Positions 33,553 through 52,383 of a DNA stretch of 64,000 nt are shown here, piece after piece. The notes under the pieces are model-generated. The model made no database searches and had not been told where the DNA came from. It was given only the letters and a program-made list of their open reading frames with translations. The DNA comes from Alphaproteobacteria bacterium (GTDB lineage: Bacteria > Pseudomonadota > Alphaproteobacteria > UBA7985), in contig OZ245893.1 of NCBI GenBank assembly GCA_965229645.1, positions 770,529 through 834,528 of the forward strand, given 5' to 3'. The position numbers were made by a program, and so were the translations under genes. The stretch's first letter is position 1; each line of letters begins with the position of its first letter.

Positions 33553-33646
33553 TGGTTTTTTAATTGAACCCTCTAAGCCCTGAGCGAGGAGCGAAACCTA
33601 TGGAGCAGAGCCAAGACGCCTTGGGCGTTTCTGAACATCGAGTCCC

Positions 33647-36401: not shown

Positions 36402-36433
36402 GGGCACAATCCCAAACCTTAAAGGAGGTATCC

Positions 36434-37456
36434 ATGAAAAACCTATCCATTTCCTTATTGGCCCTATCCTGTGCCAGCGGGGTCGCCGCCGCAGAGGGCG
36501 ACCTGTTCCTTTACAACTGGACCGACTATACGGCACCCGATTTGATCGAGAAGTTTGAGGCCGAAACGGGCATTTCCGTGACGCTCGACACCTACGATTC
36601 CAACGAGACCTTGCTGGCCAAATTGCAAGCGGGCGCGACGGGCTACGACATCGTGGTACCATCGCACAATTTCGTGGAAATCATGGTCGGCGAAGGACTG
36701 CTGCAGCCGATCAACGCCGCTGACCTCGCGGGCTACGACAATCTGAACGCGGACTTCACCAGCCCGTCGTGGGACGAGAACAATGCCTACACCGTTCCCT
36801 GGCAGTGGGGCACCACTTCCTTCACCGTCAATACGGACGTGTTTGGCGGCGATATCAATACCTACGAGGTGCTGTTCCAACCGCCTGAAGAACTGCAAGG
36901 CAAGATCGGCATGTTCAAGTCGCCTGACGAGGTCATATCGATGGCGCTGATTTCGCTCGGTCTGCCGTTGTGCAACGAAAACCCTGAGGACATGCAGCAG
37001 GTGCTGGAGCTGCTCGAAAGCCAAAAGCCCCATGTCAAAACCTACAACTCGGACGGGATTTTGGAGCGGCTGGTGTCGGGCGATACGGCGGTGCATCAGA
37101 ACTGGAACGGCTATTCGATCCGCGCGCGCGATGAGAATGCCGCCATGCAGTACGCCTTCCCCAAGGAAGGGGTAATTGCCTGGGCCGACAATGTTGCGGT
37201 GCCAGTCGGCGCGCCCAACTACGACAACGCGATCAAGTTCATCGAGTTCCTCATGGACCCGCAGAACATCGCCGTGCAGTCCAACTTCGCAGGCTACTCC
37301 AACGGCATCACGGGATCCGAGGCCTATATGGACGAGGCGCTGAAGGCGGCGCACGAGTTGTCTCCGCCCGCAGGCACACCGCTCGTGTTCTCGCAAACTT
37401 GCTCGCCCACTGCGGTTGATTTGCAAAACCGTGTTTGGACGGCTCTGCTTCAGTAG
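36434..37456 (+). CDS. ABC transporter periplasmic substrate-binding protein, PotD/PotF-like
   Basis: Start MKNLSISLLALSCASGVAA, preceded by AAGGAGG. Paralogous to the 9162..10235 product. Confidence 0.75.
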   Translation: MKNLSISLLALSCASGVAAAEGDLFLYNWTDYTAPDLIEKFEAETGISVTLDTYDSNETLLAKLQAGATGYDIVVPSHNFVEIMVGEGLLQPINAADLAGYDNLNADFTSPSWDENNAYTVPWQWGTTSFTVNTDVFGGDINTYEVLFQPPEELQGKIGMFKSPDEVISMALISLGLPLCNENPEDMQQVLELLESQKPHVKTYNSDGILERLVSGDTAVHQNWNGYSIRARDENAAMQYAFPKEGVIAWADNVAVPVGAPNYDNAIKFIEFLMDPQNIAVQSNFAGYSNGITGSEAYMDEALKAAHELSPPAGTPLVFSQTCSPTAVDLQNRVWTALLQ

Positions 37457-37501
37457 CTCCTTAATTTAGGCGGCGGGGCCTGTGCCCCGCCGCTGTACCC
37501 T

Positions 37502-39175: not shown

Positions 39176-39256
39176 TCTGATATGCGCGGCTGCGTTGATT
39201 TTGACGACGGCGGCTGCTGAAGGTCCAAGCAAGGTTGGGTGAACATTTCATGCTGA

Positions 39257-39469
39257 ATGCTGCGACTGTTCACAGGATGGCGTTTGGCTAGAAGACTGAA
39301 GTCACCCGAAGATACGAGACTCCTTAGATTTCCGCCCTCCGCGCGAGAACTCAACTCTATGGAAAACGTCTGGCCGAATCCACAAGCCAACAACCGCTCG
39401 GCAACCGTTTTCGAACGTTGCGATGACATTCTCCAAAGCGTGCACGTCATGGAGCTTCTCGGCAAATGA
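39257..39469 (+). pseudogene. Remnant of an IS630/Tc1-family transposase C-terminus
   Basis: Translation FPPSARELNSMENVWPNPQANNRSATVFERCDDIL matches the conserved LPPYSP(E/D)LNPIENVW...N...F C-terminal block of IS630 transposases. No catalytic upstream part is present. Confidence 0.5.
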
Positions 39470-39606
39470 CCTGGAGCGCATAGAATCAATAGCCGCGCGT
39501 AGATGAGCAACGGTCGTCTGATTTTTGCACTGGAGTTGCGCACAAGGTGGGTCGCGCATCGACTTCTCGTGCAAGGGAGCGAACACCTACAAAATGGAGT
39601 TCCCCA

Positions 39607-40506
39607 ATGTCAGAATTCACTGAACAAATTACAACCTATCTCACCCATTGTGAAAGATCGCGCAGTCTAAGCCCCCACTCCCTTAGGGCCTATGCGCAAG
39701 ACTTGTTTGATTTTCTCTCCTTCAGAGCTGTGCACGACAAAGAAGATGCAGTAAAACCAGAAACCCTTATCGATTACGTATATCACTTAAGACATGATCG
39801 TAATCTTAAACCAGCTACGGTGCGCAGAAGGCTGACTTGTGTTCGCGCGATGTTGCTTTGGACTTATCAAGACAACTCAGCGCTTTGTTCCAGAATTCGA
39901 GAACAAGACCTTGAACTGCGAGTTCCAAAAACCCTACCCAAGCCCATAGAGCGGCAAGACATACGGCATATTCTGCAAATTGGCGAAACAGTTTTATCCA
40001 AGTCAACCTGGAAACAAACTGCTCTGCTCATACGTCTCATTGTCGCAACAGGACTCAGGATCAGCGAAATTCTCAACATCAAACTCAAAGATGTTAGCAC
40101 CGACGGCAGAACAATCCGCGTGATGGGTAAAGGGAGCCGTGAGCGCACGGTTTACGTGGTCAATATCGATGTTCTCCAAGAGTTTACTGAAATGCTCTGC
40201 GGTAGGCAGAACCACAATCCAAATGATCACGTGTTTCAGAATGCCTGGGGTCGGCCTCTAAGTGCAAGCGCATTTCGAAAACGCCTAAAGGACTTGACAT
40301 CCAGGCCAAATGTGCCGGCGCATCTATCTCCACATAAGCTTCGACACTCCGCGGCAACCCTGCTGATTGAGGAAGGGGTGGATATTCGCTTGATTCAAAG
40401 GTTGCTTGGTCATGCCAGTATCGCGACTACGGAACTCTATACCAAGGTTACCGACACATCTCTCCGCGCAGCGCTTGAGTGTGCGGACACAATTTCAACG
40501 ATTTAG
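39607..40506 (+). CDS. Tyrosine-type site-specific recombinase/integrase (XerC/D-like fold)
   Basis: Start MSEFTEQ. Catalytic residues in GLRISEIL, HKLRHSAAT and LLGHASIATTELYTKV. Intermediate GC. Confidence 0.8.
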   Translation: MSEFTEQITTYLTHCERSRSLSPHSLRAYAQDLFDFLSFRAVHDKEDAVKPETLIDYVYHLRHDRNLKPATVRRRLTCVRAMLLWTYQDNSALCSRIREQDLELRVPKTLPKPIERQDIRHILQIGETVLSKSTWKQTALLIRLIVATGLRISEILNIKLKDVSTDGRTIRVMGKGSRERTVYVVNIDVLQEFTEMLCGRQNHNPNDHVFQNAWGRPLSASAFRKRLKDLTSRPNVPAHLSPHKLRHSAATLLIEEGVDIRLIQRLLGHASIATTELYTKVTDTSLRAALECADTISTI

Positions 40507-40531
40507 AGAGGAGTGGCGATAACAAAGAATT

Positions 40532-41644
40532 ATGGGCAGAGATGACCAGCTAATAGTGATTTCAAAACACTATGACAATTTCAAAAATTACGCCCTGGCT
40601 AGTGACGCCTACAAGTATATCGCTTTTTCTGGAAGTCCTATTCTAACAGAAAAAATTTGGGTTAGGGGAGCTGAAACGGGCAGAAGCAGTAAACAATTTA
40701 TGTCTTCATTGACGATAGGAGACATCGGCATTTACGATAAAGGCAGATTCCAGATATTCTTTAACCAACCGTCGATGTTATCTCAGCAATGGAGTTACTT
40801 GCCGAATGTTACTGTTCTAGCGCCCAACTTACACTCATATCAGCAAGCCGCAGACAAATTTAACTTCTACAGCTGGATAGTCAAGTATGGAAATTCAGCG
40901 ATTAAAGAAGTAATGCTAAATCAAATTTCACAATTTAACATCCATTTCAGAGTAGGTAGACCAAAGCCAAATGACAGAAAAATAAGCTCATCTCAAAAGG
41001 GAGAAGGGGGAAGTTCCTATCAATCAAGTGCTCCTAAAGACTGTGATAGTGTATATAGAACATCAAGTTTCTGCAACTACGAGGTTGGTCTAATAATGCA
41101 ATCAGTAGCATATCAAGATGGATGTATTCATGGACCTGTAGGTAGAGTTTGGAGTGGACATGAAGAAAACCCCTACAGGAATAGCTGCATATATTATGAC
41201 CCGAATGTAGAGAATATGATTGATTTAGATAGAATGTATCAGCTTCAAACCGATGTATTCTGCCTCTTAAGAGAAATGAAGTTCACTGGCGCATTCAGCA
41301 CTGATTGGCTTTATACAACAAACGGAGGAAAATTCTATTTTCTCGAAGTCAATCCAAGATTTTCAAGCGACGTGTGCTTGTTTGATCAAAGCTACAAAAA
41401 CAATGGAATTCAAAATCAAATTGCGGTTAATCATCAAATGTCGACATCTGAGAGTTTCCTAGGGAGGCGTATTGAGATAGTGAGTTTTTGTGAGTTTGGT
41501 GGCAGTGAAGAGTTTCGAGCATACTTTCCGCTGGAGAGGACACATGAAAACCATAATTTTGCACTTAATATGTCTCGGAGAGTTCCAGAGTACCTCCTGG
41601 ATTTTCATACAAACCATATGCTTCTCCATTTATCTGAAACTTGA
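40532..41644 (+). CDS. ATP-grasp-like protein, low GC (function unknown)
   Basis: 370 aa. GKFYFLEVNPRFSSD resembles the ATP-grasp E-x-N motif region. Strongly AT-rich. Starts 26 bp after the integrase stop. Confidence 0.45.
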   Translation: MGRDDQLIVISKHYDNFKNYALASDAYKYIAFSGSPILTEKIWVRGAETGRSSKQFMSSLTIGDIGIYDKGRFQIFFNQPSMLSQQWSYLPNVTVLAPNLHSYQQAADKFNFYSWIVKYGNSAIKEVMLNQISQFNIHFRVGRPKPNDRKISSSQKGEGGSSYQSSAPKDCDSVYRTSSFCNYEVGLIMQSVAYQDGCIHGPVGRVWSGHEENPYRNSCIYYDPNVENMIDLDRMYQLQTDVFCLLREMKFTGAFSTDWLYTTNGGKFYFLEVNPRFSSDVCLFDQSYKNNGIQNQIAVNHQMSTSESFLGRRIEIVSFCEFGGSEEFRAYFPLERTHENHNFALNMSRRVPEYLLDFHTNHMLLHLSET

Positions 41645-42998
41645 TTTGTGAAGTTTCTATCAATTTCATCTCTCTGTTTCTCAAATTATGTATTTCTATC
41701 TGCAGTTGAAGTTCTTCAGCCTGATCTTTCAATTTCTCTAACGTTGAATAGTTAAGTGAATCAACAACTTCTGTTGTCATTTCGCTTAGCTGATCAAGGA
41801 GTTCATTAATGTCTAAGTGAATTGTCGACGCTCCTAACACAGAAGAGGCAACCCAAGCCCAGCGAAGTGCATATGCCAACTTCATGGCTCTTCTGAAGAC
41901 TATGCTTCCTTCATATATTTCAGAACTTTGAATCGATTGATATTTTATACAGCTATCAATTGCACTAATTATTTGTGCACACTTTTTCCAGTCTTCAGGG
42001 GAGGCTAAATTGGCGGAGCCAAACCGTACGTGTAAAATGACCTCTCCCCAATACAGTGCTTCCAATTCAGCGCCTGCACGTTTTGCCCTGGAAAAAATCA
42101 CCCCAGGGATTTTTCCCTCTTGATTGCCACTTATGCTTAAGGAGTCTTTTAATAGAGGAGCGAGAATTTGTTTAGCTTTAACATTATCTCGAAGTGACTT
42201 TATAATATTGATTGATTGATCTAATCGATATAGCAGGTCTTGCGATTGCAGCCTATCCAATAAATCCTTAATCCAAGCAAAATTGATTTCGGATTGCTCA
42301 AGTTCAGAAATTCTAATTGACAAGTTTATTTTTTGGAAAAAATCAAGATTTTCGGAGTTTATAAAATTTTGCAAAACTTCGATTAATTTTTCTTTGGAGT
42401 GTATATTTTGGGAGTCATTTGGTTCATTCAAACTGGAAATCTCAAATGATGAAACGCTTCCTAAAAAATCTCTTGGTCCAATTATATAGGACAAATTTTC
42501 CAATGAGATCTCCAGTGACTCGATCACCGTATTGTCCAAAATCAATGCAGTTGCAGATACAGACCTGAGGTCAAGTTTGTTAAATCTGCAACTCCTAAAC
42601 AAACTATCCTCGAGACCGTTTGATGTCATATCTATGTCATTAAACTTACATCTCTCATATATAGTTTCGCGCATATTGCTATGTTTGTAACGAATCCGAC
42701 CCTCACCTAAGAAGTCACAGTCGCTAAATCGTGCTCCAAAAAAGCTGCAGTCTCTTATTTCTGTATCATCAGTAAAAATGAAATCGCAACTCTCAAATAT
42801 TGAGAAAACAAAGTTGCAGTTAACAAATTTACAATCTATAAACTTGCATTTTATGTATGTAGTAAGGCGTGCCTCAATACGCCGGAAATCGATATTCGGG
42901 AAAGTATATCCGACAAATGATTGATAGGATACTGTTCTGCGAAATAGAGATTCCTTCCAAACCAGATCAGTTTCAGGCACGCTCGTTAGATCATTCAT
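41565..42998 (-). CDS. Pentapeptide-repeat protein with a C-terminal coiled-coil-rich domain of unknown function, low GC
   Basis: N-terminal runs of CKFIDCKFVNCNFVFSIFESCDFIFTDD...CSFFGARFSDCDF...CKFNDIDM...CRFNKLDL (A(D/N)LXX-type pentapeptide repeats). 477 aa. Convergent with the ATP-grasp gene; their 3' ends overlap by 80 bp. Confidence 0.6.
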   Translation of the reverse strand: MNDLTSVPETDLVWKESLFRRTVSYQSFVGYTFPNIDFRRIEARLTTYIKCKFIDCKFVNCNFVFSIFESCDFIFTDDTEIRDCSFFGARFSDCDFLGEGRIRYKHSNMRETIYERCKFNDIDMTSNGLEDSLFRSCRFNKLDLRSVSATALILDNTVIESLEISLENLSYIIGPRDFLGSVSSFEISSLNEPNDSQNIHSKEKLIEVLQNFINSENLDFFQKINLSIRISELEQSEINFAWIKDLLDRLQSQDLLYRLDQSINIIKSLRDNVKAKQILAPLLKDSLSISGNQEGKIPGVIFSRAKRAGAELEALYWGEVILHVRFGSANLASPEDWKKCAQIISAIDSCIKYQSIQSSEIYEGSIVFRRAMKLAYALRWAWVASSVLGASTIHLDINELLDQLSEMTTEVVDSLNYSTLEKLKDQAEELQLQIEIHNLRNREMKLIETSQIKFQINGEAYGLYENPGGTLELSETY

Positions 42999-43242
42999 AA
43001 TTCTTTGTTATCGCTAAATTTCGTTTCGGTTAGCATGGCTGGGTCGACTTTGCAACCTACGAGTGATGACTGATTTTCGCAGTGTACCACCTCTGTTCCT
43101 GAAACGCACAATAGCGCTTCACTGGGGAAGGTCAACATATCCAGTTTAACTGCAAATTTAGAGACCGTGTCCAAGTACAGATCATACTCACGGCTAAGGA
43201 GAGGAGTTCGACTTTGCGGGGTGGAGCCTTCCGTTTTTTTGT

Positions 43243-44010
43243 CTGGTGTTCCGTGATGGATGCTGCGACTGCGCGCAGCATGACATCGGAAGGGGTGTCG
43301 GGGTTTCGGAACACCGTCATCCAGCGCGTTGCGAAGCGATGTCGCAGGGTCCAGCGCCCGCCGTTTTCAGCCTGGGTGGAACTTGGTGACACAGAGCAGA
43401 ACAGGCATCGCGCGGTCGGCACCGTCTGCTCTTGTGGCCTGTGTTCCGTGATGGATGCTGCGACTGCGCGCAGCATGACATCGGAAGGGGTGTCGGGGTT
43501 TCCGAACACCGTCGTCCAGCGCTTCGCGACGCGACTTCGCGGATCCAGCGCCTGCCGTTTTCAGCCTGGGCGGAACTTGGTGACATAAAGCAGAACGGGC
43601 AAGGCGCGGTCGGCACAGTCTGCTCTTGTGGTCGGTGTTCCGTGATCGATGCTGCGACTGCGCGCAGCATGACATCGGAAGGGGTGTCGGGGTTTCCGAA
43701 CACCGTCGTCCAGCGCGTCGCGACGCGATGTCGCGGATCCGGCGCCTGCCGTTTTCAGCCTGGGTTTAACTTGGTGACATAGAGCGGAGCAGGCAAGGCG
43801 CGGTCGGCACCGTCTGCTCTTGTGGCCTGTGTTCCGTGATGGATGCTGCGACTGCGCGCAGCATGACCTCGGAAGGGGTGTCGGGTTTCGGAACACCGTT
43901 ATCCAGCGCGTCGCGACGCGACGTCGCAGGATCCAACGCCTGCCGTTTTCAGCTTGGACAGAACGTGGTGACATATAGCCGAACGGGCAAGGCGCGGTCG
44001 GCACCATCCG
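43243..44010. repeat. Tandem array 1 of a ~192-198-bp high-GC nested-palindrome repeat (4 units)
   Basis: Units start at 43243, 43441, 43633 and 43829. Core is GTGTTCCG-TGATGG-ATGCTGCG-actgcg-CGCAGCAT-...-CGGAACAC, followed by a conserved segment with the CGTCGCGACG / GCGACGTCGC palindromes. Confidence 0.85.
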
Positions 44011-44254
44011 TTCGTAGGGTCAGCGTGCTGGGGTGGATGTGGCGGGGCCAAGCAGCGCTTTGTTATTTGACTTCGACCCTGGGATGGAACAGCAGGGCGA
44101 TGGGAATATCCAACGCCGACGGAGCATTCGATGGACCGACGCGAGCAGGCCGCCTGCGTTCGCCAGTACTTTGAGTATTTGACCGCTTCCAATTAAGCTG
44201 CGATCCTCGACTTGTTCGATCCCGATGGGGATGTCGATTCTCCCTATCTGGACA
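44003..44254 (+). repeat. Copy 1 of a ~255-bp segmental duplication (array terminus plus decayed 5' part of a small SnoaL-like ORF); copy 2 at 47343..47605
   Basis: Collinear near-identity with 47343-47605. The small ORF is interrupted here by TAA (..FEYLTASN*) but is intact in copy 2. Confidence 0.7.
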
Positions 44255-44296
44255 GGATGCGCGCTTGCGAATTCTTCGCCAAACTCGCCGAGGCCT

Positions 44297-44697
44297 CGCA
44301 GCCTAACACGATCCTGTTCGACCACGAATGCGCGCGCGCCTACGCCTGGCAAACGATCCGGGAACGGGGCATCACGCTGGCCTTCTCAACGGACTGGCCC
44401 GTCGTGCCCGTCCATGTACTGGCGAACATCCAAAGCGCGGTCGCCCCCTTGGACTTGGGGCCTGGATGGCCCGATCAGCGCCAATCGCTCATGGATACCT
44501 TGCGCAGCTACACGGCCATGAACGCCTGGCTCGGCTTTCAGGAAGCCCACACGGGCCAGATTCGGCAGGGCTTGGCGGCGGACCTGGTGGTCTTGGACGG
44601 TTCGATTGAAGACACGGCCCCGACGCAGATCGGCGATCTCGGCGTTGCGTTGACCTTATGCGATGGTCAGGTGACTTATGATGGGGGAAGGTTTTGA
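44297..44697 (+). pseudogene. Displaced duplicate of the amidohydrolase 3' end (right att-like repeat), fused in frame to a SnoaL-like leader fragment (chimeric ORF 44212..44697)
   Basis: ..QPNTILFDHECARAYAWQTIRERGITLAFSTDWPVVPVHVLANIQSAVAPLDLGPGWPDQRQSL.. is near-identical to residues encoded at 38773-39175. It lacks the N-terminal ~420 aa. Confidence 0.7.
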
Positions 44698-44756
44698 TAC
44701 TCACGAGAACATGAGTTAGGCTACCCACACCCTCGACGTCCGCCCCCTGCCCGACG

Positions 44757-45690
44757 TCATCCAGCGCGGAGCGAAGCGAAGTCGCAGGATCCATCACCCG
44801 CTGTTTCCCCTGAAACGGAACGCGGCCACAAGGAGAGAAGCACGCAACCCAAGAGTCGGTCCCGTCCGCTTTCGCGACAGACGTTCAGTGATGGATGCTG
44901 CGACTGCGCGCAGCATGACATCGGAAGGGGGTGTTGGGGTTTCGGAACACCGTAATCCAGCGCTTCGCGACGCGACGTCGCAGGATCCAGCGCCTGCCGT
45001 TTTGAGCCTGGGCGGAACGTGGTGACACAGAGCAGAACAGGCATCGCGCGGTCGGCACCGTCTGCTCTTGTGGTCGGTGTTCCGTGATGGATGCTGCGAC
45101 TGCGCGCAGCATGACGTCGGAAGGGGTGTCGGGGTTTTGGAACACCGTCATTCAGCGCGTCGCGACGCGACGTTGCAGGGTCCATGGCCTGCTGTTTCGT
45201 CCTAGGCTGAACGTGGTGACATAGAGCGGAACGGGCAAGGAGTGGTCGGTACCGTTTGCTGTTGTGGTCGGTGTTCCGTGATGGATGCTGCGACTGCGCG
45301 CAGCATGACACCAGGAGGGGCGTCGGGGTTTCGGAACACCGTAATCCAGCGCTTCGCGACGCGACGTCGCAGGATCCAGCGCCTGCTGTTTTGAGCCTGG
45401 GCGGAACGTGGTGACAAAGAGCGGAACAGGCAAGGCGCGGTCGGTACCGTCCGTTCTTGTGGCCTGTGTTCCGTGATGGATGCTGCGACTGCGCGCAGCA
45501 TGACATCGGAAGGGGGTGTTGGGACTCTGAACCAGCGTCATCCGGCGCGGAGCGAAGCGAAGTCGCAGGGTCCATCACCTGCTGTTTTCAGCCTGGGCGG
45601 AACTTGGTGACATAAAGCGGAACGGGCAAGGCGCGGTCGGCACTGTCCGCGCTTGTGGCCAGTGGTCCGTGATGGATGCTGCGATTGTTT
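44757..45690. repeat. Tandem array 2 of the ~195-bp nested-palindrome repeat (~5 units, last truncated)
   Basis: Same core GTGATGGATGCTGCGACTGCGCGCAGCATGAC recurring at ~44888, 45084, 45279, 45473 and 45668. Confidence 0.85.
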
Positions 45691-45797
45691 TGTGATGCGG
45701 ACGTTCCTTGCGCCTTTGGGGATTGGAGCCCGCTTGCAAACCGCAGCCGTGGCCCTACACCAGATCCAACAAGAATTTTTCGCAATAGGGTTTGTCC

Positions 45798-46166
45798 CTA
45801 TCGAGCCATCCAGCCTCTATCGGCGGCCAGAGCCCGCAACCGCTTTGCCCTTATTGTGACTTGATTATTGGTTAGGCCCGAAAAATCAATAAGAAAGTGG
45901 GCAGGATTTTCAGGGACAGGATCCGCCTCAAATGGCAAATCAAGACGACGATATTCCTCCTCACTAAGACTCTGAACGCCGATACTATCGAAACCACGCG
46001 CGAGAAAATTAGCCAAACTGCCTTGAGCAGAAACCAAGGCTTCATGATCTACCGACAAGCATGATTGGTTTTTGAGCATAGGTTTGAACGCAAGGCTCAT
46101 AACCCTTCCATCTTTTTCATGATCGGCGCAAATATTCCTCATAAGACACTTCTTCCCAGCATTCAT
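45798..46166 (-). CDS. Hypothetical protein (122 aa), lower GC, second gene of a two-gene cassette
   Basis: ATGA overlap with the upstream ORF at 46163-46166. No recognisable motif. Confidence 0.4.
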   Translation of the reverse strand: MNAGKKCLMRNICADHEKDGRVMSLAFKPMLKNQSCLSVDHEALVSAQGSLANFLARGFDSIGVQSLSEEEYRRLDLPFEADPVPENPAHFLIDFSGLTNNQVTIRAKRLRALAADRGWMAR

Positions 46167-46654
46167 CGTGAGTTAAAGCGTAAAGGTGAACTACGAATTT
46201 TCTCAACTGAGTGCTTGAGCAGTTGAGCATCTGGATTTTTCAATGATGTTTCTGTTTCATGATTTGAAGATAAGTCGATTCCACACATATCAACATCTCC
46301 AGAATCTAAAAATTCAATCGAGAAATCCCATCCATTTTCCTGAAATTCAAAATGAATATCCCCGTCTGGAGTCGAGGCCACACACAAATTTTGTGGCAGA
46401 GATCGCGCTGTGTAGAGGAAGAACAAACTCTTACTAAGAGTTAACTTCCTCGGCGCTTTTCCAACGCCATTGTGCCAACCCTTGGGCAAGTTACCATAGC
46501 TTTGAATTTTTTTTGTTGGCTCACTCAAAGGATGTTGGGGATCTTGTGATCTTAGCTCTTCAACGACCCACGGATCCATTCTGTTTCGTTGCGCTTGTGT
46601 CGCACGCGAAACGCTTTGTGGGTCATATGTGCTTTGATGGACTTGGGCGTTCAT
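46163..46654 (-). CDS. Hypothetical protein (~163 aa), lower GC, first gene of a two-gene cassette
   Basis: Start taken at MNAQVHQ. The ORF-track N-extension runs into the LysR-fragment scar and is rejected. No recognisable motif. Confidence 0.4.
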   Translation of the reverse strand: MNAQVHQSTYDPQSVSRATQAQRNRMDPWVVEELRSQDPQHPLSEPTKKIQSYGNLPKGWHNGVGKAPRKLTLSKSLFFLYTARSLPQNLCVASTPDGDIHFEFQENGWDFSIEFLDSGDVDMCGIDLSSNHETETSLKNPDAQLLKHSVEKIRSSPLRFNSR

Positions 46655-46702
46655 TGAACTTGTATGGCATATGGGAAGCAAGCGGTCAATTCGGGGGACA
46701 AA

Positions 46703-46758
46703 AGACGTACCTCCACGCCCTTCTCCAGCAAACTTGTGCCGACGCAGGGCGCATCTGA
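46703..46758 (+). pseudogene. Fragment duplicating the last ~17 codons of the LysR gene at 50929..50981
   Basis: ACGTACCTCCACGCCCTTCTCCAGCAAACTTGTGCCGA(C/T)GCA(G/A)GG is shared; it encodes ..TYLHALLQQTCADA.. in both places. Confidence 0.6.
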
Positions 46759-46825
46759 TTGGATGGAGCCATTGCCGCGAGCCGCGGACCACGCTCAAGC
46801 GCCCCGCGTTCAGCTTGACATCTTG

Positions 46826-47345
46826 GGGGGTGTCGGGACTCTAAAACACCGTCATCCAGCGCGTCGCGACGCGACGTCGCGGGATTCAGCGTCTGCCGTT
46901 TTCAGCCTGGGTTGAACTTGGTGACGTAGAGCGGAGCAGGCAAGGCACGGTCGGCGCCGTCCGTTCTTGTGGCCTGTGTTCCGTGATGGATGCTGCGACT
47001 GCGCGCAGCATGACATCGGAAGGAACGTCGGGTTTCGGAACACCGTCGTCCAGCGCGTCGCGACGCGACGTCGCAGGGTCCAGCGCCTGCCGTTTTCAGC
47101 CTGGGCGGAACGTGCTGACATAGAGCCGAACGGGCAAGGCATGGTCGGCGCCGTCCGTTCTTGTGGCCTGTGTTCCGTGATGGATGCTGCGACTGCGCGC
47201 AGCATGACGTCGGGAGGGGTGTCGGGGTTTCGGAACACCGTCGTCTGGCGCGTTGCGACGCGACGTCGCAGGGTCCATCGGCTGCTGTTTCGTCCTGGGC
47301 GGAACGTGGTGACATCGAGCGGAACGGGCAACGCACGCTCAGCAC
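46826..47345. repeat. Tandem array 3 of the ~195-bp nested-palindrome repeat (~2.5 units)
   Basis: Cores at ~46981 and 47175. Array ends in the same terminal segment as array 1 and runs into segmental-duplication copy 2. Confidence 0.85.
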
Positions 47346-47471
47346 CATCCGTTCGTAGGGTCAGCGTGCTGGGGTGGATGTGGCGGGGCCAAGCAGCGCT
47401 TTCTTATTTGACTTCGACCCTTGGATGGAACAGCAGAGCGATGGGACTATCCAACGCCGAAGGAGCAGTCG

Positions 47472-47621
47472 ATGAACCAACGCGATCATGCCGTCTGCGT
47501 TCGCCACTACTTTGAGTATTTGACCGCCTCCAACTACGCTACGATCCTCGACTTGTTCGATCCCGATGGGGAGGTCGATTCTCCCTATCTGGGCAGGATG
47601 CGCGCGCTTACCTTGCCATGA
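47472..47621 (+). CDS. Small SnoaL/NTF2-like fragment protein (49 aa), translationally coupled to the FAD monooxygenase
   Basis: MNQRDHAVCVRHYFEYLTASNYATILDLFDPDGEVDSPYLGRMRALTLP. Stop overlaps the monooxygenase ATG (ATGA at 47618-47621). A degenerate copy is at 44108-44175. Confidence 0.35.
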   Translation: MNQRDHAVCVRHYFEYLTASNYATILDLFDPDGEVDSPYLGRMRALTLP

Positions 47622-48865
47622 CCCTCCTCATCTGCGGGGCGGGAATCGCTGGCTTGACCATGGGACTGACGCTGCATCAGATCGAGGTGCCGTTTCAAAT
47701 CTTTGAAACCGTGTCGCGGCCCAAACCCTTAGGCGTTGGGATCAACTTGCAGCCGCCCGCCGTCCGAGAACTCTATGCACTGGGACTGGAGGAAGCTCTG
47801 GATCGGATCGGCGTGCAGACCCGCGACTATGGGTTTTATACGCGCACCGGCCTTGAGATATGGACCGAACCGCGCGGGCGTCGGGCTGGATACAAATGGC
47901 CGCAATATTCCGTGCATCGAGGGCACTTGCAGATGGCGCTGCTCGCCGCCTTGCGTGCGCGTTGTGGCGAAGACTGCCTTAGGTTCGGCGCGAAAGTGCT
48001 GGGTTACGAAAACACCAGGGACGGCGTCAGGTTGCGCTACGAGATGGGTGGGACGACCTGGTGGGCGACGGGTCCTATGGTGGTCGGTGCTGACGGCATT
48101 CATTCGGCGATACGGGCGCGCATGTATCCGAACGAAGGGCCGCCCGTTTGGGGCGGCGCGCTCATGTGGCGGGGGACGTCGCAGGCCAAGCCGTTTTTGA
48201 GTGGCGCATCGATGATCTTAGCGGGCAACGACAGGCAGCGCTTTGTTTCCTATCCCATTTCCAAACCGGACCCCGAAACCGGCCTCTCGACCCTCAACTG
48301 GATTGCGGAAACAACTCCCAACGCCTCGACGCCCATCGATCGAGGGGATTGGAACCGCCGCGTCGAGTCTTCTCGATTTGCGTCGGATTTTGCCGATTGG
48401 GATTTTGGCTGGATCGACGTTCCAGGCTTGATCGGGTCGGCCGCCGAGGTTTTTGAGTACCCCATGGTGGACCGCGAACCGGTCGAGAGCTGGACCGACG
48501 GTAACGTTACGCTGATCGGCGACGCGGCCCATGCGACCTATCCCGTTGGCTCAAGCGGCGCGAGCCAGGCTATTGTCGATGCGCGGATCCTCGGCGCTGA
48601 GATCAGGACCCATGGCCCTGGGGCCGACGCCGCGCACGCCTATGAGGCCCGCGTGCGCCCCATGGCCAACAAAGTAACCCTCGCCAATCGCGGCACCGGA
48701 GGGCCAGATGCGATCATGCAGCTTGCCGAAGACCGATGCGCAGGCGATTTCAGCCGCCTCGACGCCGCCCTGCCCACGGCGGAGCGCGCGGCCCATGCGG
48801 CTGCCTTCAAGAAAATCGCGGGGCTCAGCGTTGAGGAGACAAATCGCACGAATGGCCTATTGTGA
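47618..48865 (+). CDS. FAD-dependent aromatic-ring monooxygenase (salicylate/3-hydroxybenzoate hydroxylase-like)
   Basis: N-terminal LICGAGIAGLTMGL, a GADGIHSAIR block and a DAAH-containing C-terminal motif (GDAAHATYP). Confidence 0.75.
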   Translation: MTLLICGAGIAGLTMGLTLHQIEVPFQIFETVSRPKPLGVGINLQPPAVRELYALGLEEALDRIGVQTRDYGFYTRTGLEIWTEPRGRRAGYKWPQYSVHRGHLQMALLAALRARCGEDCLRFGAKVLGYENTRDGVRLRYEMGGTTWWATGPMVVGADGIHSAIRARMYPNEGPPVWGGALMWRGTSQAKPFLSGASMILAGNDRQRFVSYPISKPDPETGLSTLNWIAETTPNASTPIDRGDWNRRVESSRFASDFADWDFGWIDVPGLIGSAAEVFEYPMVDREPVESWTDGNVTLIGDAAHATYPVGSSGASQAIVDARILGAEIRTHGPGADAAHAYEARVRPMANKVTLANRGTGGPDAIMQLAEDRCAGDFSRLDAALPTAERAAHAAAFKKIAGLSVEETNRTNGLL

Positions 48866-48973
48866 GTGTCCGTAACCTACGCGATCAGGTCTCAACTTAG
48901 GCCGTATCTGGTTGATCTGGCAGCATGGGGCACTCGGGCGCGTTGGTGGCGGAGGACCACTTGTACGCTTTCC

Positions 48974-49963
48974 TCAGCGTGGCTGGTCCGGTTCGTTGGG
49001 ATTGCGCGTGATGAGTGTCTCAATTTGCTCCATGGTTTCTGCTGGCAAGGGACCCAAGCTCAAAGCATCGGTGATTTCGTTCATTTGTTCTGCTGTTCGC
49101 GCGCCTGGGACTGGAACATGATCTTCGCGCTGCCCCCAAATCCATGCCAGCGCGCCCTGGACAGGCGTTCGGCCCCCTTGGGTCAAAAGATCGCGGACAG
49201 CCGCGAGGGTCTCCAGAAACGCTGGATTGGCCCGCCCATCGCGGTAGTATTCCATCCAATCTTCACGCGACGCGCGAATGTCGTTGGCTGGCAAGGTCGT
49301 TGCGGCGTTGTACTTTCCCGAGAGCAAGCCCATGGCGAGCGGGGATCGGATCAATGACAAGAGCCCCTGATCGCGCGCCACGTTCTGCATGCGCGGGGCG
49401 TCGAAGAATAGGTTCATGGCGTATTCCACCGCGACAAAATTGGGTTGCGAGGCCACCGCCGATGCGCGCTCAGAATAGTCCGTGCTCCACCCATAGGCGC
49501 GCAACTTACCCGCCGCCCGCAAGCCGTCCATCGCATGGAAGATGGTTTGCGCCTCGGCCACGGGCATGTCGTTGATATGGAGCAACACAAGATCAAGACA
49601 CTCGCGGTTCAAGCGACGCAAGCAACCCTCCACGGCTGGCACCACGTCCTCGGGCTTGAAGGGTTGAAACGAAATTTGCTTGCTCTGTTCGTCGATCCCG
49701 ATGCCAATTTTGGTTATGATCAGCGCGTCGGGCCGCCCTTTGAGCGCCTGGGCCAGCAGACGCTCTGAATGGCCCGCCCCGTAAGCTGCCGCCGTATCGT
49801 ATACCCTGATACCCCCGTCCCAGGCTGCATGGATTGTGCGGATTGAGGCCCCGTCGTCCGCCTTAGCGTAGCCCAAGGACTGAGTGCCGTGGTACATGGT
49901 CCCCCCTATGGGCCAGCACCCCATCCCCAAAGCGGGGATTTGTGTGTCAAAAATTCGGATCAT
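48974..49963 (-). CDS. Aldo/keto reductase
   Basis: Start MIRIFDTQIPALGMGCWPIGG. AKR catalytic-tetrad context. Coordinates of the start are +/- 1 because of an indexing ambiguity. Confidence 0.7.
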   Translation of the reverse strand: MIRIFDTQIPALGMGCWPIGGTMYHGTQSLGYAKADDGASIRTIHAAWDGGIRVYDTAAAYGAGHSERLLAQALKGRPDALIITKIGIGIDEQSKQISFQPFKPEDVVPAVEGCLRRLNRECLDLVLLHINDMPVAEAQTIFHAMDGLRAAGKLRAYGWSTDYSERASAVASQPNFVAVEYAMNLFFDAPRMQNVARDQGLLSLIRSPLAMGLLSGKYNAATTLPANDIRASREDWMEYYRDGRANPAFLETLAAVRDLLTQGGRTPVQGALAWIWGQREDHVPVPGARTAEQMNEITDALSLGPLPAETMEQIETLITRNPNEPDQPR

Positions 49964-50144
49964 TGCGGATCTCCCATCGCAGGCCGCAAGTTGAAGGGAA
50001 CACCCAACGTCGAACAGACCCGCCTTAAGTGTGACAACGAAAGTAAAATTAGGAGACAACTGGTCCCCCATGTGCCTTCGCGGAACCTGCTTGAAACAGC
50101 CTTTGGCTCTTTTCATCAACAAAAGAAAATGAAATTATCATTTC

Positions 50145-50981
50145 ATGAATGAACGTTGTTTGGATTGGGACAACCTAAAGTTGTTCCTGGCTGTCGCACG
50201 CGCTGGCGGTTTGGGACCCGCAGCGGCGCGAACGGGCAAGAGCCCACCAACGCTCGGGCGGCGCATGGTTGAGCTGGAACGCGACCTGGGAAGAGACTTA
50301 TTTGTCCGCAAACCTCGCGGTTACAGCCTGACCCAGGAGGGTGAGGGTTTGCTCGTGAAAGCTGAATCGATGGAAGCCCTGGTTCAACCCCTGCTCGCAA
50401 CCAGTCCAGCGGAGGCGCCGCCGCTTGTGAAAATTGCCGCTGGGACTTGGGTAACGCAAGTCTTGCTGCAGGCGGTAGATCAGCTCCTGGCCACTGCCCC
50501 CGTGCGGCTGCGGTTTATTGCCGAAGAAAGCCTGACGGACATCGCCCGACGCGAAGCTGTGATTGGTGTACGCAACCGTGCGCCTGTCCAAGTTGGTTTG
50601 GCGGGTCGCAAAATTGGCGGTGTCCAATTTGCCGTCTACGCCCGCGATCCCAGCGTCACCCCGTGGGCGCGGGTTTTAAACGAGACGCCATCCGCGCTTT
50701 GGGTGAGGCGTATGTCCCAAGGCGCGCCCGCCATCGAGGTCAGCGCGCCGCACCATGCCCTCACCCTGGCAAAGGCTGGCCTCGCACGCGCGGTTCTGCC
50801 AACCTTCATAGGAAACCAGCAAGCAGGCCTTCGACCCGTTTCCGATCCCATCCACGCCTTAAACCACGATCAATGGTTGGTAGCGCACCATGAAGACCGC
50901 TTTCTTCCCGAAATCCGGAAGTTGATGACGTACCTCCACGCCCTTCTCCAGCAAACTTGTGCCGATGCAAGGTACGTGTGA
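50145..50981 (+). CDS. LysR-family transcriptional regulator
   Basis: N-terminal wHTH LKLFLAVARAGGLGPAAARTGKSPPTLGRRMVELERDLGRDLF. Confidence 0.8.
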   Translation: MNERCLDWDNLKLFLAVARAGGLGPAAARTGKSPPTLGRRMVELERDLGRDLFVRKPRGYSLTQEGEGLLVKAESMEALVQPLLATSPAEAPPLVKIAAGTWVTQVLLQAVDQLLATAPVRLRFIAEESLTDIARREAVIGVRNRAPVQVGLAGRKIGGVQFAVYARDPSVTPWARVLNETPSALWVRRMSQGAPAIEVSAPHHALTLAKAGLARAVLPTFIGNQQAGLRPVSDPIHALNHDQWLVAHHEDRFLPEIRKLMTYLHALLQQTCADARYV

Positions 50982-51061
50982 AACCAAGGGTCATAAAATT
51001 TGACTTTTTTATGGCCCTTGTACCAGCGAACATACGAGTCATTCTGGGTCGCCGCTGGTAT
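50981..51061. repeat. Miniature (~80 bp) copy of the MITE-like element exactly filling the gap between two convergent LysR genes
   Basis: AAACCAAGGGTCATAAAATTTGACTTTTTT...TACCAGCGAACATACGAGTCATTCTGGGTCGCCGCTGGTAT retains both termini of the full element but lacks its centre. Confidence 0.6.
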
Positions 51062-52005
51062 CAGTCGGCTTCATCGCGGCCTGCGCCTACGAAATGCCGC
51101 TTTCCGTCCGACGAGGCGAAATAGTCGCGGCAGACGGTTTCAAACAGCGTGACCGCAGGGCTCACGAAACTGTCGGCGCGCCGCATTGTTCCGAAGATCG
51201 GGGCGGGCACGGCGTCGGAGAGGGGGATACTGTGAACAGCGCGTCCTGTGTAGGCAACATCGACGGCAGGTTTCAGATTCAACAAGGCATAGCCCAAGCC
51301 ATAGGACACGAAACTGCGCAGCGTTTGAAACGTTCCTGCGCGGTACACCACATGCGGCGCGATATTGGCAACCCGAAACAGCATGTCGAAGTAAGTGCGC
51401 GATTCTGGCAAGTCCAACAAGATCATGGGGAACGGTGCAAGCTCGGCCAACGTCACGGACTTGCGCGCGGCGAACGGATGCGCGGCGTCGATCAAGGCAT
51501 AGGGTCGCGCAAGCCCGAAGCCCTTGAAATCCGTCCCATCTGGTTTCCCCAAGTCGTAGGTCAGCGACACGTCCACCGCGCCGCTTAGCACTAGATCGGC
51601 GACATAGATCAGGTCGCCCTCGATGACTTTAATTTTCAGTTTCGGGTGTCGTTCGGACATTTTCTGCACCGCGTAGGGCAAAGCCAGCGGCGCGAGAGGG
51701 GCGAAGCAACCAATTGCGAACTCCCCCGTCAGTTCGCTTTGCGCGCTGGCCATATGGTCCTCAAGTTCGCGCGCCTGATCGAGCAGTGCGCGCACCTTGT
51801 TGACCAACCTTTGCCCGTCGGAGGTCAGCAAGATTCCCTTGCTGGGGCGTCGCACGAACAACTGGACATTGAATTGGTCCTCGAACGCGTCGATGGCCGC
51901 CGCAATCGAGGATTTGGAGATCCGTTGGCTGGTCGCAGCAGCAGCGATGGACCCGTGGCTTGCTGCGGCCTCGATATAGATCAGTTGCCTTAGATTTAAT
52001 CGCAT
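51061..52005 (-). CDS. LysR-family transcriptional regulator
   Basis: Start MRLNLRQLIYIEAAASHGSIAAAATSQRISKSSIAAAIDAFEDQFNVQLF (wHTH). Confidence 0.8.
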   Translation of the reverse strand: MRLNLRQLIYIEAAASHGSIAAAATSQRISKSSIAAAIDAFEDQFNVQLFVRRPSKGILLTSDGQRLVNKVRALLDQARELEDHMASAQSELTGEFAIGCFAPLAPLALPYAVQKMSERHPKLKIKVIEGDLIYVADLVLSGAVDVSLTYDLGKPDGTDFKGFGLARPYALIDAAHPFAARKSVTLAELAPFPMILLDLPESRTYFDMLFRVANIAPHVVYRAGTFQTLRSFVSYGLGYALLNLKPAVDVAYTGRAVHSIPLSDAVPAPIFGTMRRADSFVSPAVTLFETVCRDYFASSDGKRHFVGAGRDEAD

Positions 52006-52026
52006 GGGCGCGCGCCTTTCAGAAAC

Positions 52027-52285
52027 AGACGCCTTTATGCCAACGACCAAAAAAGTTGACACTTTTTTGGCCGTTTTGTGTCTCGCGGCAGAAACGCTTC
52101 GCGTTTCGGCTTTTCTGGGTTGCGGTCTCTACTCGCTCGCTATGCTTGCTCAGCCCGACCTCAGGACGGGACCTTCGTTTTACCTCGAGGCGCTTTCCTT
52201 GTTTGTCTCGGGGCCGCTGCGGGGGCCGCAGTCGCGGCCCTTAATACCAGCTATCATTAGAGTCATTCTGGGTCGCCGCTGGTAT
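52027..52285 (+). repeat. MITE-like structured repeat, copy C (longest, with a ~60-bp internal insertion)
   Basis: ATGCCAACGACCAAAAAAGTTGACAC...GCCGCTGGTAT. Starts 22 bp upstream of the LysR start codon. Confidence 0.75.
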
Positions 52286-52383
52286 TAAAGGTCGGAAAAA
52301 CCGTGCATCTTGTCATGAATAAACTATCTTTCCCACTAAGGGACCTCGCCCTAGGCTGCCTTCACAATCGTGTGAAGGGACTT

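Follow-up and report, generated by a model that had tools for sequence, protein, structure and literature searches.

The 64-kb stretch of DNA that was analysed as a whole (hereafter the window) contains three arrays of non-coding DNA with a repeat period of 194-196 bp, which foreign islands adjoin or break up. Each repeat unit is a head-to-head pair of hairpin modules, H1 (minus strand) and H2 (plus strand), whose tags face each other. The features are listed below with the analyses that delimited the repeats.

7989-8030, plus strand: solo H2-type module GTTC-ATCCTGCG-CACTGCGAAGCGAAGT-CGCAGGAT-CCA, intergenic, perfect stem
39249-39276: J1, hybrid H1-like site ATGCTGCG-ACTGTT-CACAGGAT, left boundary of island A
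39277-43242: island A, low GC
39547-40506: Xer-like tyrosine recombinase (island A)
40532-41644: ATP-grasp-like ORF (island A)
41565-42998, minus strand: pentapeptide-repeat protein (island A)
43243-44010: array 1, 4 units of 194-195 bp each (TRF, unit alignment, sequence)
43455-43476, minus strand: representative H1, TGTC-ATGCTGCG-CGCAGT-CGCAGCAT-CCA (exact-match count, invariance test, DNA folding)
43510-43548, plus strand: representative H2, CGTC-(A/G)TCCAGCG, 15-16-nt loop, CGC(A)GG(A/G)T-CCA (unit alignment)
44011-44754, plus strand: duplication joint, fused copies of the start of gene X and the 3' end of an amidohydrolase gene
44755-45687: array 2, a degenerate unit, 4 units and a cut H1 (TRF, blastn, unit alignment)
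45688-46700, minus strand: island B, low GC; same junction occupied in the related strain L148
45798-46166: PDC-M32B, candidate anti-phage gene (island B)
46163-46798: PDC-M32A, 5'-truncated candidate anti-phage gene (island B)
46797-47345: array 3, ~2.7 units after a degenerate H1 half (TRF, blastn, unit alignment)
59978-60017, minus strand: solo H1 module, intergenic, with 40 nt of unit flank (blastn)

Three tandem arrays of a ~195-bp unit had been claimed in a preliminary description of the locus, and TRF bore them out at 43245-44005 (period 194, 3.9 copies, 90% matches), 44883-45684 (period 196, 4.1 copies, 85% matches) and 46845-47354 (period 194, 2.6 copies, 88% matches). With blastn, the start of array 2 was pushed back to 44755 via a degenerate first unit (44755-44877) that holds the ancestral H2 loop GGAGCGAAGCGAAGT, and the start of array 3 to ~46811. 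Array 1 begins at the right edge of the low-GC island A and finishes with a "natural" array end, common to arrays 1 and 3, after which comes a copy of the gene X upstream region. The last H1 of array 2 breaks off after GATGCTGCGA at 45687, the junction J2 with island B, and array 3 opens with the degenerate right half of an H1, gcgttcagcttgacatc. Within the unit a short spacer of ~31 nt lies between H1 and H2 and the long spacer measures ~100 nt; the outer inverted repeat GTGTTCCG...CGGAACAC and a segment rich in the self-complementary hexamers CGTCGCGACG/GCGACGTCGC are present in the sequence as first described.

The hairpin modules share the form (C/T)GTC, an 8-bp stem starting with AT, loop, stem and CCA, with a loop of 6 nt in H1 and 16 nt in H2 (15-16 nt in the arrays). 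The perfect 8-bp stem-loop reported earlier was confirmed, as the 22-nt H1 ATGCTGCG-ACTGCG-CGCAGCAT occurs in 11 exact copies in the window, all on the plus strand, with none expected in shuffles; the array copies start at 43260, 43455, 43649, 43843, 44895, 45091, 45285, 45480, 46990 and 47184. H1 is identical in 10/10 array units, with none of its 22 columns variable versus 84 of 173 in the rest of the unit (Fisher p=2.6e-6), where units diverge by 8-18%. In all ten array copies the palindrome is directly preceded by GTC and directly followed by C, and H1 folds as a DNA hairpin of -10.7 kcal/mol (z -2.4). H2 is decaying inside the arrays, since most array units have mutations in its tag or stem; the array copies fold as DNA no better than shuffles. 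Both of the dispersed fragments noted previously are real, as solo hairpin modules and not as array pieces. The solo H1 is a 40-nt match of 97.5% identity, ~40 nt past the stop codon of the ORF at 58584-59939, and the solo H2-type module has a 16-nt loop, folds as a DNA hairpin of -11.7 kcal/mol (z -3.0) and has a homologue present as a solo copy in L065.

Judging by sequence, H1 and H2 belong to the CGTC-tagged REP superfamily, in the form of Di Nocera, De Gregorio & Rocco 2013. In that CGTC-REP report (PMC3733652), these elements are defined by a CGTC/TGTC tag, an 8-9 bp stem starting with AT and a CCA tail, head-to-head dimers predominate, alpha-proteobacteria are the main hosts, and the superfamily takes in Rickettsia RPE-4/-6 and Neisseria dRS3, which equals CGTC-1. 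We found the exact 25-nt H1 core at 67 loci in ~26 genomes of several phyla, set in each genome in short (60-210 nt) genome-specific repeats that are mostly intergenic. Across these loci there were 146 perfect hairpins with a TCAT flank versus 2 in reversed-sequence controls; G precedes the flank in 142 of the 146 and the tail is mostly CCA. Pairing is kept across stem variants (e.g. ATGCTGCG, ATTCTGCG, ATCCTGCG, ATTCCGCG, ATTCCCGC) and loops are 4 to 16 nt long or longer. At another place on the 3.25-Mb contig that contains the window, a further repeat ORF, P0002, carries H1-like and H2-like motifs.

Small GIY-YIG single-stranded DNA nucleases (Ssn) recognise CGTC-type hairpins (Chenal 2025, PMC11893778), and cleavage and binding by SsnA reportedly depend critically on GTC 5' and C 3' of the palindrome (PMC11893778). 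The GIY-YIG family also recurs among ORFs near H1 in the 67 loci. Nitrococcus mobilis Nb-231 has an Ssn-like GIY-YIG gene of 97 aa with exact H1 and H2-type hairpins on both sides, and an H1/H2 head-to-head dimer immediately precedes its ATG. Upstream hairpins also occur in L062, where exact H1 is 20 nt from an Ssn-like pseudogene, and in L030, where a CGTC hairpin is at 17 nt. In 80 metagenome loci of the Ssn-like GIY-YIG family, a forward CGTC hairpin ends <=120 nt upstream of the gene in 31, and the bin -100..0 holds 36 hairpin matches versus ~0-1 per 100-nt bin far off. A second peak lies just downstream of the gene, so that hairpin peaks on both sides independently reproduce the NTS-ssnA-NTS architecture (PMC11893778). 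Exact H1 was present in 0 of these 80 loci. No Ssn/GIY-YIG gene lies within the window, none of the best 120 homologues listed for the family comes from the 3.25-Mb contig, and the published degenerate search pattern for Ssn-related motifs (SRM) had no match in the window, as neither H1 nor H2 fits it. By analogy with Neisseria, a cognate Ssn nuclease would be encoded in the host genome.

Comparison with strain L148, whose flanks are 97.4-97.8% identical to the window, revealed a difference in array length: ~2 units versus ~11.5 in the window, although L148 is represented by a low-coverage (4.25x) metagenome contig in which repeat collapse during assembly could lower the unit count. L148 holds one full unit and one unit split by island B, and is without 2.2 kb of sequence (43243-45462) and two of the array 3 units. 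Every array difference is in register, and the arrays thus appear to expand and contract by recombination. H1 is mutated in the sole full unit of L148, so its conservation is not universal. Junction J2 (array 2/island B) is common to both strains and the J1 site is conserved; island A in L148 keeps its integrase and ends and has different cargo. The changed unit number, in register, and the islands with different cargo at the same place support the earlier proposal of a recombination hotspot. The claim that each rearrangement junction falls at an array end was overstated. The duplication joint combines gene X upstream sequence and first codons, ~88% identical to 47346-47605, with the amidohydrolase 3' end (44289-44687 = 38764-39162, 96.7%), and its fusion point at ~44262-44289 is ~260 nt from the array end; the right edge of island B (~46700) adjoins a 46-nt piece of another gene's 3' end (46704-46749 = 50927-50972). 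Island A also holds an IS630-like transposase fragment.

We interpret the arrays, with a probability of roughly 0.8, as BIME/NIME-like non-coding mosaic repeats of a dimeric CGTC-REP unit that act at the DNA level. They resemble E. coli BIME-2 and Neisseria NIME because a dimeric unit is amplified in tandem, and two opposed REP-type hairpins with a short and a long spacer match the BIME/RIME-like element already considered in the preliminary description, which listed real features of the unit and missed its make-up as a dimer in which both modules come from one family, the wide spread of that family and the link to Ssn. H1 may be kept intact because a small GIY-YIG nuclease of the Ssn type, encoded at another place in the genome, would recognise it when extruded as a single-stranded DNA hairpin; the Neisseria NTS hairpin has been shown experimentally to be such a recognition site (PMC11893778). 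Unit number would shift by unequal homologous recombination or slippage between units, whose homology could make the arrays landing or exchange points for islands, and site-specific action at the H1 loop possibly adds to island capture. Built from a known and widespread hairpin family, copied head-to-tail with strain-variable copy number, the arrays are a tidy but otherwise ordinary case of a known repeat kind and of modest interest.

Against the Ssn reading, the islands join the arrays within the H1 loop, whereas SsnA cuts several nt 5' of the tag (PMC11893778). An unlikely alternative is that H1 serves primarily as the Xer-like recombinase's core attachment site, the recombinase being that of island A, and that the arrays are att-site arrays capturing islands. 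A 6-bp crossover spacer between inverted 8-bp arms fits a tyrosine-recombinase core site, but family loops of 4 to 16 nt or more are ill-suited to a fixed crossover spacer. The hybrid J1 bounds island A on the left, 285 nt before the start of the integrase gene, and ~23 nt of it (TTYCRTGMTGR-ATGCTGCGACTG) are directly repeated at the right edge (43249-43271; 19/23 identical), yet the right junction is a complete H1 unit and not the expected reciprocal hybrid. Island B starts inside an H1 loop, and the degenerate H1 right half stands just before array 3; against this, the right edge of island B is a truncation inside a gene and the island is without a recombinase. The cargo exchange behind the same integrase and ends in L148 would suit this model, as would an integrase in L149, 59% identical, with CGTC hairpins 350-400 nt upstream, but no integrase recurs beside H1 in the 67 genome loci. 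In Neisseria, dRS3 is the target of filamentous phages. Attachment-site activity would be compatible with the mosaic-repeat interpretation.

It is improbable that the arrays act as RNA, either as 3' UTR hairpins stabilising or terminating mRNAs or as a tandem structured non-coding RNA, an option raised initially. PMC3733652 reports REPs of other bacteria as mRNA stabilisers or terminators and places CGTC REPs mostly downstream of coding regions; the arrays lie downstream of amidohydrolase gene copies, and H1 in other genomes is commoner between convergent (14) than divergent genes (6). However, H1 orientation relative to transcription is unbiased in those genomes (10 versus 9 among co-directional gene pairs), Rfam gave no match even at E<=10, no T-run follows H1, and folding of the whole unit was no stronger than that of shuffled sequence (z = -1.6 as DNA, +0.27 and -0.85 as RNA on the two strands). 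Moreover, H1 is kept at the sequence level, without compensatory variation inside the genome, and in the case of the NTS hairpin SsnA binds the ssDNA form, not the RNA form (PMC11893778). Very improbable is mobilisation of REPIN-type hairpins by a RAYT (IS200/IS605-type Y1 transposase), as for GTAG-tagged REPs: the overall likeness is strong, with an unpaired 5' tag that is conserved, dimers arranged head-to-head and clusters resembling BIMEs, but CGTC REPs are described in PMC3733652 as not flanking RAYT or other transposase genes, and no Y1 transposase family recurs among the ORFs near H1 in the 67 loci, where the GIY-YIG family was found instead. That the arrays encode a repetitive protein can practically be dismissed despite minus-strand open frames of 273, 159 and 148 aa and a 272-aa ORF across array 2 deposited in a public collection as a predicted protein, since neither period, 194 or 196, is divisible by 3 and the frame shifts every unit, a search of 5.8 billion proteins matched only the ORF itself and one repeat ORF of the same contig, no Pfam domain was present and L148 is without most of the ORF; the original statement that the units are not CRISPR-like, not coding and keep no reading frame was correct.

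Taken as mosaic repeats of a dimeric CGTC-REP unit, the arrays are close to the CGTC-tagged REPs in unpaired 5' tag, AT-start 8-bp stem, CCA tail, head-to-head dimers, intergenic sites, alpha-proteobacterial predominance and the lack of an adjacent transposase gene (PMC3733652). According to that report, the four described families have loops of 4-5 nt, as against 6 (H1) and 16 (H2) here, and tandem arrays are called rare outside Neisseria and Wolbachia, unlike the regular arrays here; the stem ATGCTGCG, compared by description only, was not matched to any of the four. Neisseria NTS/SRM with SsnA (PMC11893778) is alike in the oriented CGTC flank of the hairpin and the C after the palindrome, in hundreds of copies clustered around particular genes, and in hairpins, including exact H1, flanking small single-domain GIY-YIG genes, but differs in the SRM pattern missed by H1/H2 and the ssn gene lacking in the window. 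Neisseria NIME (PMC1797815) shares arrays of short palindromes (dRS3) with 50-150-bp repeat segments between them, strain-variable array length, adjoining variable genes and a role as target of integrating elements. NIME mixes >100 RS families, whereas a single composite unit repeats regularly here, the palindromes differ (ATTCCC-N8-GGGAAT versus ATGCTGCG...CGCAGCAT), and the host is Neisseria versus an alpha-proteobacterium-like genome here; according to the 2007 paper, no other genus had by then been seen to have NIME arrays (PMC1797815). E. coli BIMEs likewise have regularly spaced REPs of alternating orientation with short and long spacers (PMC2817692). Their dimer is also iterated in tandem. 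BIME-2 reaches about 12 repeats. The REPs of E. coli BIMEs are GTAG-tagged and RAYT-linked, whereas those here are CGTC-tagged, in a longer unit (195 bp) with one of its two hairpins decaying.

Tandem Repeats Finder detected the three tandem arrays of a ~195-bp unit reported in the preliminary description, and blastn with one unit as query extended two of them, moving the start of array 2 to 44755 by a degenerate first unit and that of array 3 to ~46811; every motif named in that description was likewise present in the sequence. The 64-kb window holds ten copies in the arrays and two solo copies. The latter had been taken for dispersed fragments of the unit; both exist, but they are solo hairpins, one of each of the two hairpin modules of the unit (H1 and H2). 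The locus and the solo copies comprise the following features.

7989-8030: solo H2-type hairpin, a perfect copy (ATCCTGCG, 16-nt loop, CGCAGGAT)
37502-39175: amidohydrolase gene
39249-39276: J1, a hybrid H1-like site between the amidohydrolase gene and island A
39277-43242: island A (low GC), with an IS630-like fragment, a Xer-like tyrosine recombinase, an ATP-grasp-like ORF and a pentapeptide-repeat protein
43245-44005: array 1, period 194, 3.9 copies, 90% matches (Tandem Repeats Finder)
~44262-44289: joint between arrays 1 and 2, a fusion of the copied gene X start with a copied amidohydrolase 3' end
44883-45684: array 2, period 196, 4.1 copies, 85% matches (Tandem Repeats Finder)
45687: end of array 2, cut inside the H1 loop and followed by island B
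45688-46700: island B (low GC), with PDC-M32B and truncated PDC-M32A, candidate defence genes
46704-46749: 46-nt piece of the 3' end of another gene (= 50927-50972), before array 3
46845-47354: array 3, period 194, 2.6 copies, 88% matches (Tandem Repeats Finder)
After array 3: gene X, then an FAD monooxygenase
59978-60017: solo H1 with 40 nt of unit flank, hairpin at 59990-60011

On the minus strand H1 reads TGTC-ATGCTGCG-CGCAGT-CGCAGCAT-CCA and on the plus strand H2 reads CGTC-ATCCAGCG-(16 nt)-CGCAGGAT-CCA, so that both have the same form, each on its own strand. Their tagged ends face one another across ~31 nt and a spacer of ~100 nt precedes the next H1; each unit thus combines two related palindromes, joined head to head as a heterodimer, with a long spacer and is iterated in tandem, the order H1(-), 31 nt, H2(+), ~100 nt being repeated 4, 5 and 2.7 times in the arrays.

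The palindrome ATGCTGCG-ACTGCG-CGCAGCAT (22 nt) was found in 11 mismatch-free copies, all on the plus strand (ten in the arrays and one solo), and in none of 100 shuffles, with perfect pairing of the ATGCTGCG/CGCAGCAT arms in 11/11 copies. H1 was shown to be under sequence-level constraint: among the ten units, which are 82-92% identical pairwise, variable columns number 0/22 in H1 versus 84/173 elsewhere in the unit (Fisher p = 2.6e-6), and 2 in the 35 nt surrounding H1. The H1 tag, read on the minus strand, is TGTC in eight copies, CGTC in two and GGTC in one, with GTC in every copy; 9/10 units have the tail CCA and the remaining one CGA. Folded as DNA, H1 reaches -10.7 kcal/mol (z = -2.4) and the solo H2 -11.7 kcal/mol (z = -3.0), the ATCCTGCG/CGCAGGAT arms of the latter pairing perfectly (7990-8023). 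Inside the arrays H2 is decaying: the tag is CGTC in the ancestral and solo copies, most array units carry a mutated GTC tag or a mutated A-T stem start, and the array H2 copies fold no better than shuffled sequence.

The form of H1 and H2, as read from their sequence, matches the CGTC-tagged REP superfamily. Members of this superfamily have an unpaired CGTC or TGTC tag (CCTC is allowed), a stem of 8-9 bp whose first two positions are complementary A-T, a loop of 4-5 nt and a CCA 3' tail; they are present in high copy number, dispersed and mostly intergenic, form mostly head-to-head dimers, predominate in alpha-proteobacteria and lack an associated transposase (Di Nocera et al. 2013, PMC3733652). 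The two modules carry the tag, an 8-bp stem starting with A-T and the CCA tail, and depart from the description only in their loops of 6 nt (H1, CGCAGT) and 16 nt (H2); other loop lengths were noted for some Bradyrhizobium, Kosmotoga and Marinitoga families, and the Neisseria family CGTC-1 is dRS3 (PMC3733652). At the level of organisation, BIMEs are defined by regularly spaced REPs of alternating orientation (PMC2817692), and the NIMEs of Neisseria are arrays of dRS3 with 50-150-bp repeats between them, variable in length among strains and proposed to promote recombination (PMC1797815). The suggestion of a BIME/RIME-like mosaic element was borne out, since H1 and H2 alternate in orientation at regular spacing and in tandem, with repeated spacers and in intergenic position, and the array length at the syntenic position is strain-dependent, as judged from one low-coverage metagenome contig of a related strain (L148). 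Thus, the arrays are CGTC-tagged REP/NTS-like hairpins (NTS being the Neisseria hairpin recognised by the nuclease SsnA) in a BIME/NIME-like organisation, a known kind of element, and regular arrays of this type exist beyond Neisseria and Wolbachia.

They are not NIMEs in the strict sense, in which the palindrome is ATTCCC-N8-GGGAAT and many RS families occur, in Neisseria; the palindrome in the window differs, a single unit type is present, and the closest relative carrying the unit is an Alphaproteobacteria MAG (L065), not Neisseria. As REPINs they would be expected to carry GTAG and to flank a RAYT gene; this reading was rejected, their tag being (C/T)GTC and no recurrent Y1 transposase having been found beside H1 in 67 loci bearing its core. 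An integron cassette array, which requires an IntI-type integrase and attC sites separating single-gene cassettes, was rejected, with the recombinase scoring 98 bits against the TIGR02249 cut-off of 265, the R boxes of attC (RYYYAAC...GTTRRRY) absent from the units and the units standing in tandem with no cassettes between them. The arrays are not CRISPR-like either, as had been stated, the full 195-bp period being conserved at 82-92% and unique spacers being absent.

Furthermore, the arrays were shown to be non-coding and non-RNA-structured. A structured RNA array, one of the options first offered, found no support, since the whole unit has no fold beyond chance against shuffles (DNA z = -1.6; RNA strands +0.27 and -0.85) and Rfam returned nothing relevant, at the gathering threshold or at E <= 10. 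A coding repeat was dropped as well, because periods of 194 and 196 shift the frame with every unit, in agreement with the earlier remark that no reading frame is kept. The source genome annotation nevertheless places a 272-aa protein (P0001) over array 2 at 44757-45578 (-) and a 179-aa protein (P0002) over another repeat locus of the same genome. Among 5.8 billion sequences, the only relatives of the 272-aa ORF were itself and one other repeat ORF on the same 3,254,998-bp contig. Both annotated proteins look like spurious ORFs over REP arrays, and the 272-aa "protein" across array 2 should be treated as such. The second repeat ORF is encoded outside the window and bears H1-like and H2-like motifs, from which the repeat family would appear to be dispersed in the source genome.

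The contig L148 is 97.4% identical to the window over 30123-40534 and 97.8% over 47200-50313, and has the same J1, integrase, island A ends and island B junction. The comparison of array length proposed earlier gave one full unit plus one split by island B (~2 units) in L148, versus 11.5 in the window: L148 is without 43243-45462 and without two units of array 3, all differences being in register. As far as this single metagenome contig of 4.25x coverage shows, the arrays thus expand and contract by unit-to-unit recombination. Array copy number is five-fold different between strains ~97.5% identical in the flanks, and the arrays adjoin exchangeable islands. The only full unit of L148 has a mutated H1. 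The cargo of island A differs between the strains (window 39277-43242 versus L148 9150-12800), with an ATP-grasp-like ORF and a 477-aa pentapeptide-repeat protein in the window, and a methyltransferase and unknown ORFs in L148, whose integrase is annotated as a truncated product of 232 aa. A further strain-specific rearrangement follows closely downstream of the arrays, an IS3-family element (rve domain) at L148 17268-18621 in place of window 50314-52979.

The layout of the locus reads as a tandem duplication of [amidohydrolase-array-X] with a novel joint and two island insertions, so not all junctions lie at array ends. The preliminary claim that every rearrangement junction coincides with an array end was too strong, exceptions being the fusion joint at ~44262-44289 and the right border of island B (~46700), which adjoins the 46-nt gene piece. 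While the association of the arrays with the islands is shown, the islands may have arrived by homologous exchange through the arrays, as one possibility. Alternatively, the recombinase of island A may have acted site-specifically at the H1 loop, as suggested by the hybrid H1-like site J1 at island A, by a direct repeat of ~23 nt at both ends of this island and by the start of island B inside the H1 loop. Around integrases 59-61% identical to it (L149-L151), hairpins were seen near that of L149, and no common junction. An apparent crossover signature "TGTT" shared by J1 and J2 (the junction of array 2 and island B) was weakened by L148, in which J1 reads TGCT.

Island B encodes, at 45798-46798 (-), PDC-M32B (E=1.8e-25) and a 5'-truncated PDC-M32A (E=2.3e-08, profile 257-357 of 375), a PADLOC candidate anti-phage pair wedged between two arrays by an insertion that is also in L148. 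In island A, the 477-aa pentapeptide-repeat protein has weak similarity to the Hailong effector HalA. At its left edge, a 70-aa ORF at 39257-39469 (+) is probably a transposase remnant, resembling by eye the C-terminal part of IS630-family transposases (..ELNSMENVW..), with no Pfam match.

In the species-representative genome collection, the exact 25-nt H1 core was found at 67 loci, in Alcanivorax, Thiopseudomonas, Methylibium, other Burkholderiales, Nitrococcus mobilis Nb-231, a Neisseria isolate, Alphaproteobacteria, Desulfobulbus, Propionibacteriaceae, Cellulomonadaceae, Demequina and UBP8. It is often multi-copy (up to ~10 contigs per MAG), frequently at contig ends, and within each genome lies inside genome-specific short repeats (60-210 nt), often beside an H2-type hairpin, with flanks not common to different genomes. 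Perfect TCAT-stem-loop-stem hairpins numbered 146 in these loci versus 2 in reversed-sequence controls; G precedes 142/146 of them, giving the GTC tag, CCA follows 100/146, and pairing is kept across the stem variants ATGCTGCG, ATTCTGCG, ATCCTGCG, ATTCCGCG and ATTCCCGC. The copies in other genomes are mostly intergenic, 14 between convergent genes versus 6 between divergent ones, with no preference of orientation relative to transcription (10 vs 9). The full 195-bp unit was not found elsewhere, a plasmid search with two units as query gave no match, and a 32-nt lineage-specific H1 pattern had 0 matches in a metagenome scan. The nearest relative is L065, which carries one H2-spacer-H1 unit and a solo H2 whose homologue in the window lies at ~8 kb.

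REPs are normally lineage-specific, and identity across phyla is unusual for them. The 25-nt H1 core is identical across Pseudomonadota, Actinomycetota, Desulfobacterota and UBP8 while every flank differs (e.g. L050 842-866 and 1324-1348; L062 1191-1215), though some of the MAG contigs may be mis-binned; this identity suggests either a cognate factor that spreads horizontally or very strong constraint.

A search of the 67 loci for recurrent neighbours showed only one gene family specifically positioned beside H1, a small GIY-YIG protein (PF01541); ABC ATPases, Y-family polymerases and thioredoxins were discarded as chance co-occurrence of common families. In Nitrococcus, a 97-aa GIY-YIG gene has exact H1 and H2-type hairpins on both sides, with an H1/H2 head-to-head dimer immediately before its start codon. 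A homologous pseudogene in L062 is preceded by an exact H1 that ends 20 nt before it, and a gene of the GIY-YIG family in L030 by a CGTC hairpin that ends 17 nt before it. Moreover, 31/80 metagenome loci encoding the small GIY-YIG family have a forward hairpin ending <=120 nt upstream, and the last 100 nt upstream hold 36 hairpin matches versus ~0-1 per 100 nt farther away; a second peak lies immediately downstream of the gene. SsnA of Neisseria (GIY-YIG, cd10448) binds only the ssDNA form of the NTS hairpin (CGTCATTCCCGCGMAVGCGGGAATCYRG, containing dRS3), makes its cut a few nt to the 5' side of the hairpin and reduces transformation by DNA that bears the NTS, and Ssn homologues across bacteria are flanked by "Ssn-related motifs" (SRM) (Chenal et al. 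2025, PMC11893778). The hairpins flanking small single-domain GIY-YIG genes in other genomes resemble this arrangement, and the positions critical in the NTS, the three nt preceding the palindrome on its 5' side and the C directly following it (PMC11893778), are both kept in 10/10 H1 copies. The SRM pattern, HGTCWYN(0-2)YYVSBRHN(0-5)WNVSBRGN(0-2)RNCYNB (PMC11893778), has 0 matches in the window: H1, H2 and the solo copies fail where the canonical NTS passes, and permitting loops of up to 16 nt gave no match either. While the association of Ssn nucleases with hairpins and the CGTC-tagged REP form are already published (Chenal et al. 2025; Di Nocera et al. 2013), new here is a hairpin variant missed by the published pattern and strikingly identical across phyla. 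This H1 variant (ATGCTGCG stem, 6-nt loop), identical in several phyla, flanks Ssn-like genes and escapes the SRM pattern; therefore, motif counts and the specificity range of Ssn proteins are probably underestimated.

The window itself contains no GIY-YIG ORF, and none of the best 120 of 1385 Ssn homologues came from the 3,254,998-bp contig. We infer that H1 is maintained because its ssDNA hairpin would be recognised by an Ssn-type nuclease whose gene lies elsewhere in the genome. That H1 is the live hairpin of a horizontally spreading Ssn-type ssDNA nuclease, missed by the SRM pattern, and the arrays not passive, we consider rather improbable. Units with intact H1 could be preferentially amplified through nuclease-triggered nicking and repair, which, if true, would explain the perfect H1 in 10/10 units differing by <=18% and the identity of the 25-mer across phyla. 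Alternatively, the arrays could act as single-strand "restriction fences" cutting incoming homologous ssDNA, in which case the adjacent accessory and defence islands would be protected from replacement or curing by transformation.

In an Alcanivorax MAG (L001, L003, L017, L020, L042, L047, L051), H1 is preceded by tandem 17-mers (GATGCTGCGACTGCGCA)n, repeats of one arm and the loop, as if slippage had extended the hairpin. A 136-nt non-coding stretch of the window beside tRNA-Ser (1108-1243) is 90% identical to L065 6641-6776, directly beside the H1/H2 unit of L065, and has no Rfam match; it may represent a further dispersed repeat, or else an att or sRNA region that is conserved. The solo H2-type hairpin at 7989-8030 lies within a second low-GC stretch, at 6000-9000 (45-48% vs ~60%), which is possibly another island bordered by a REP.
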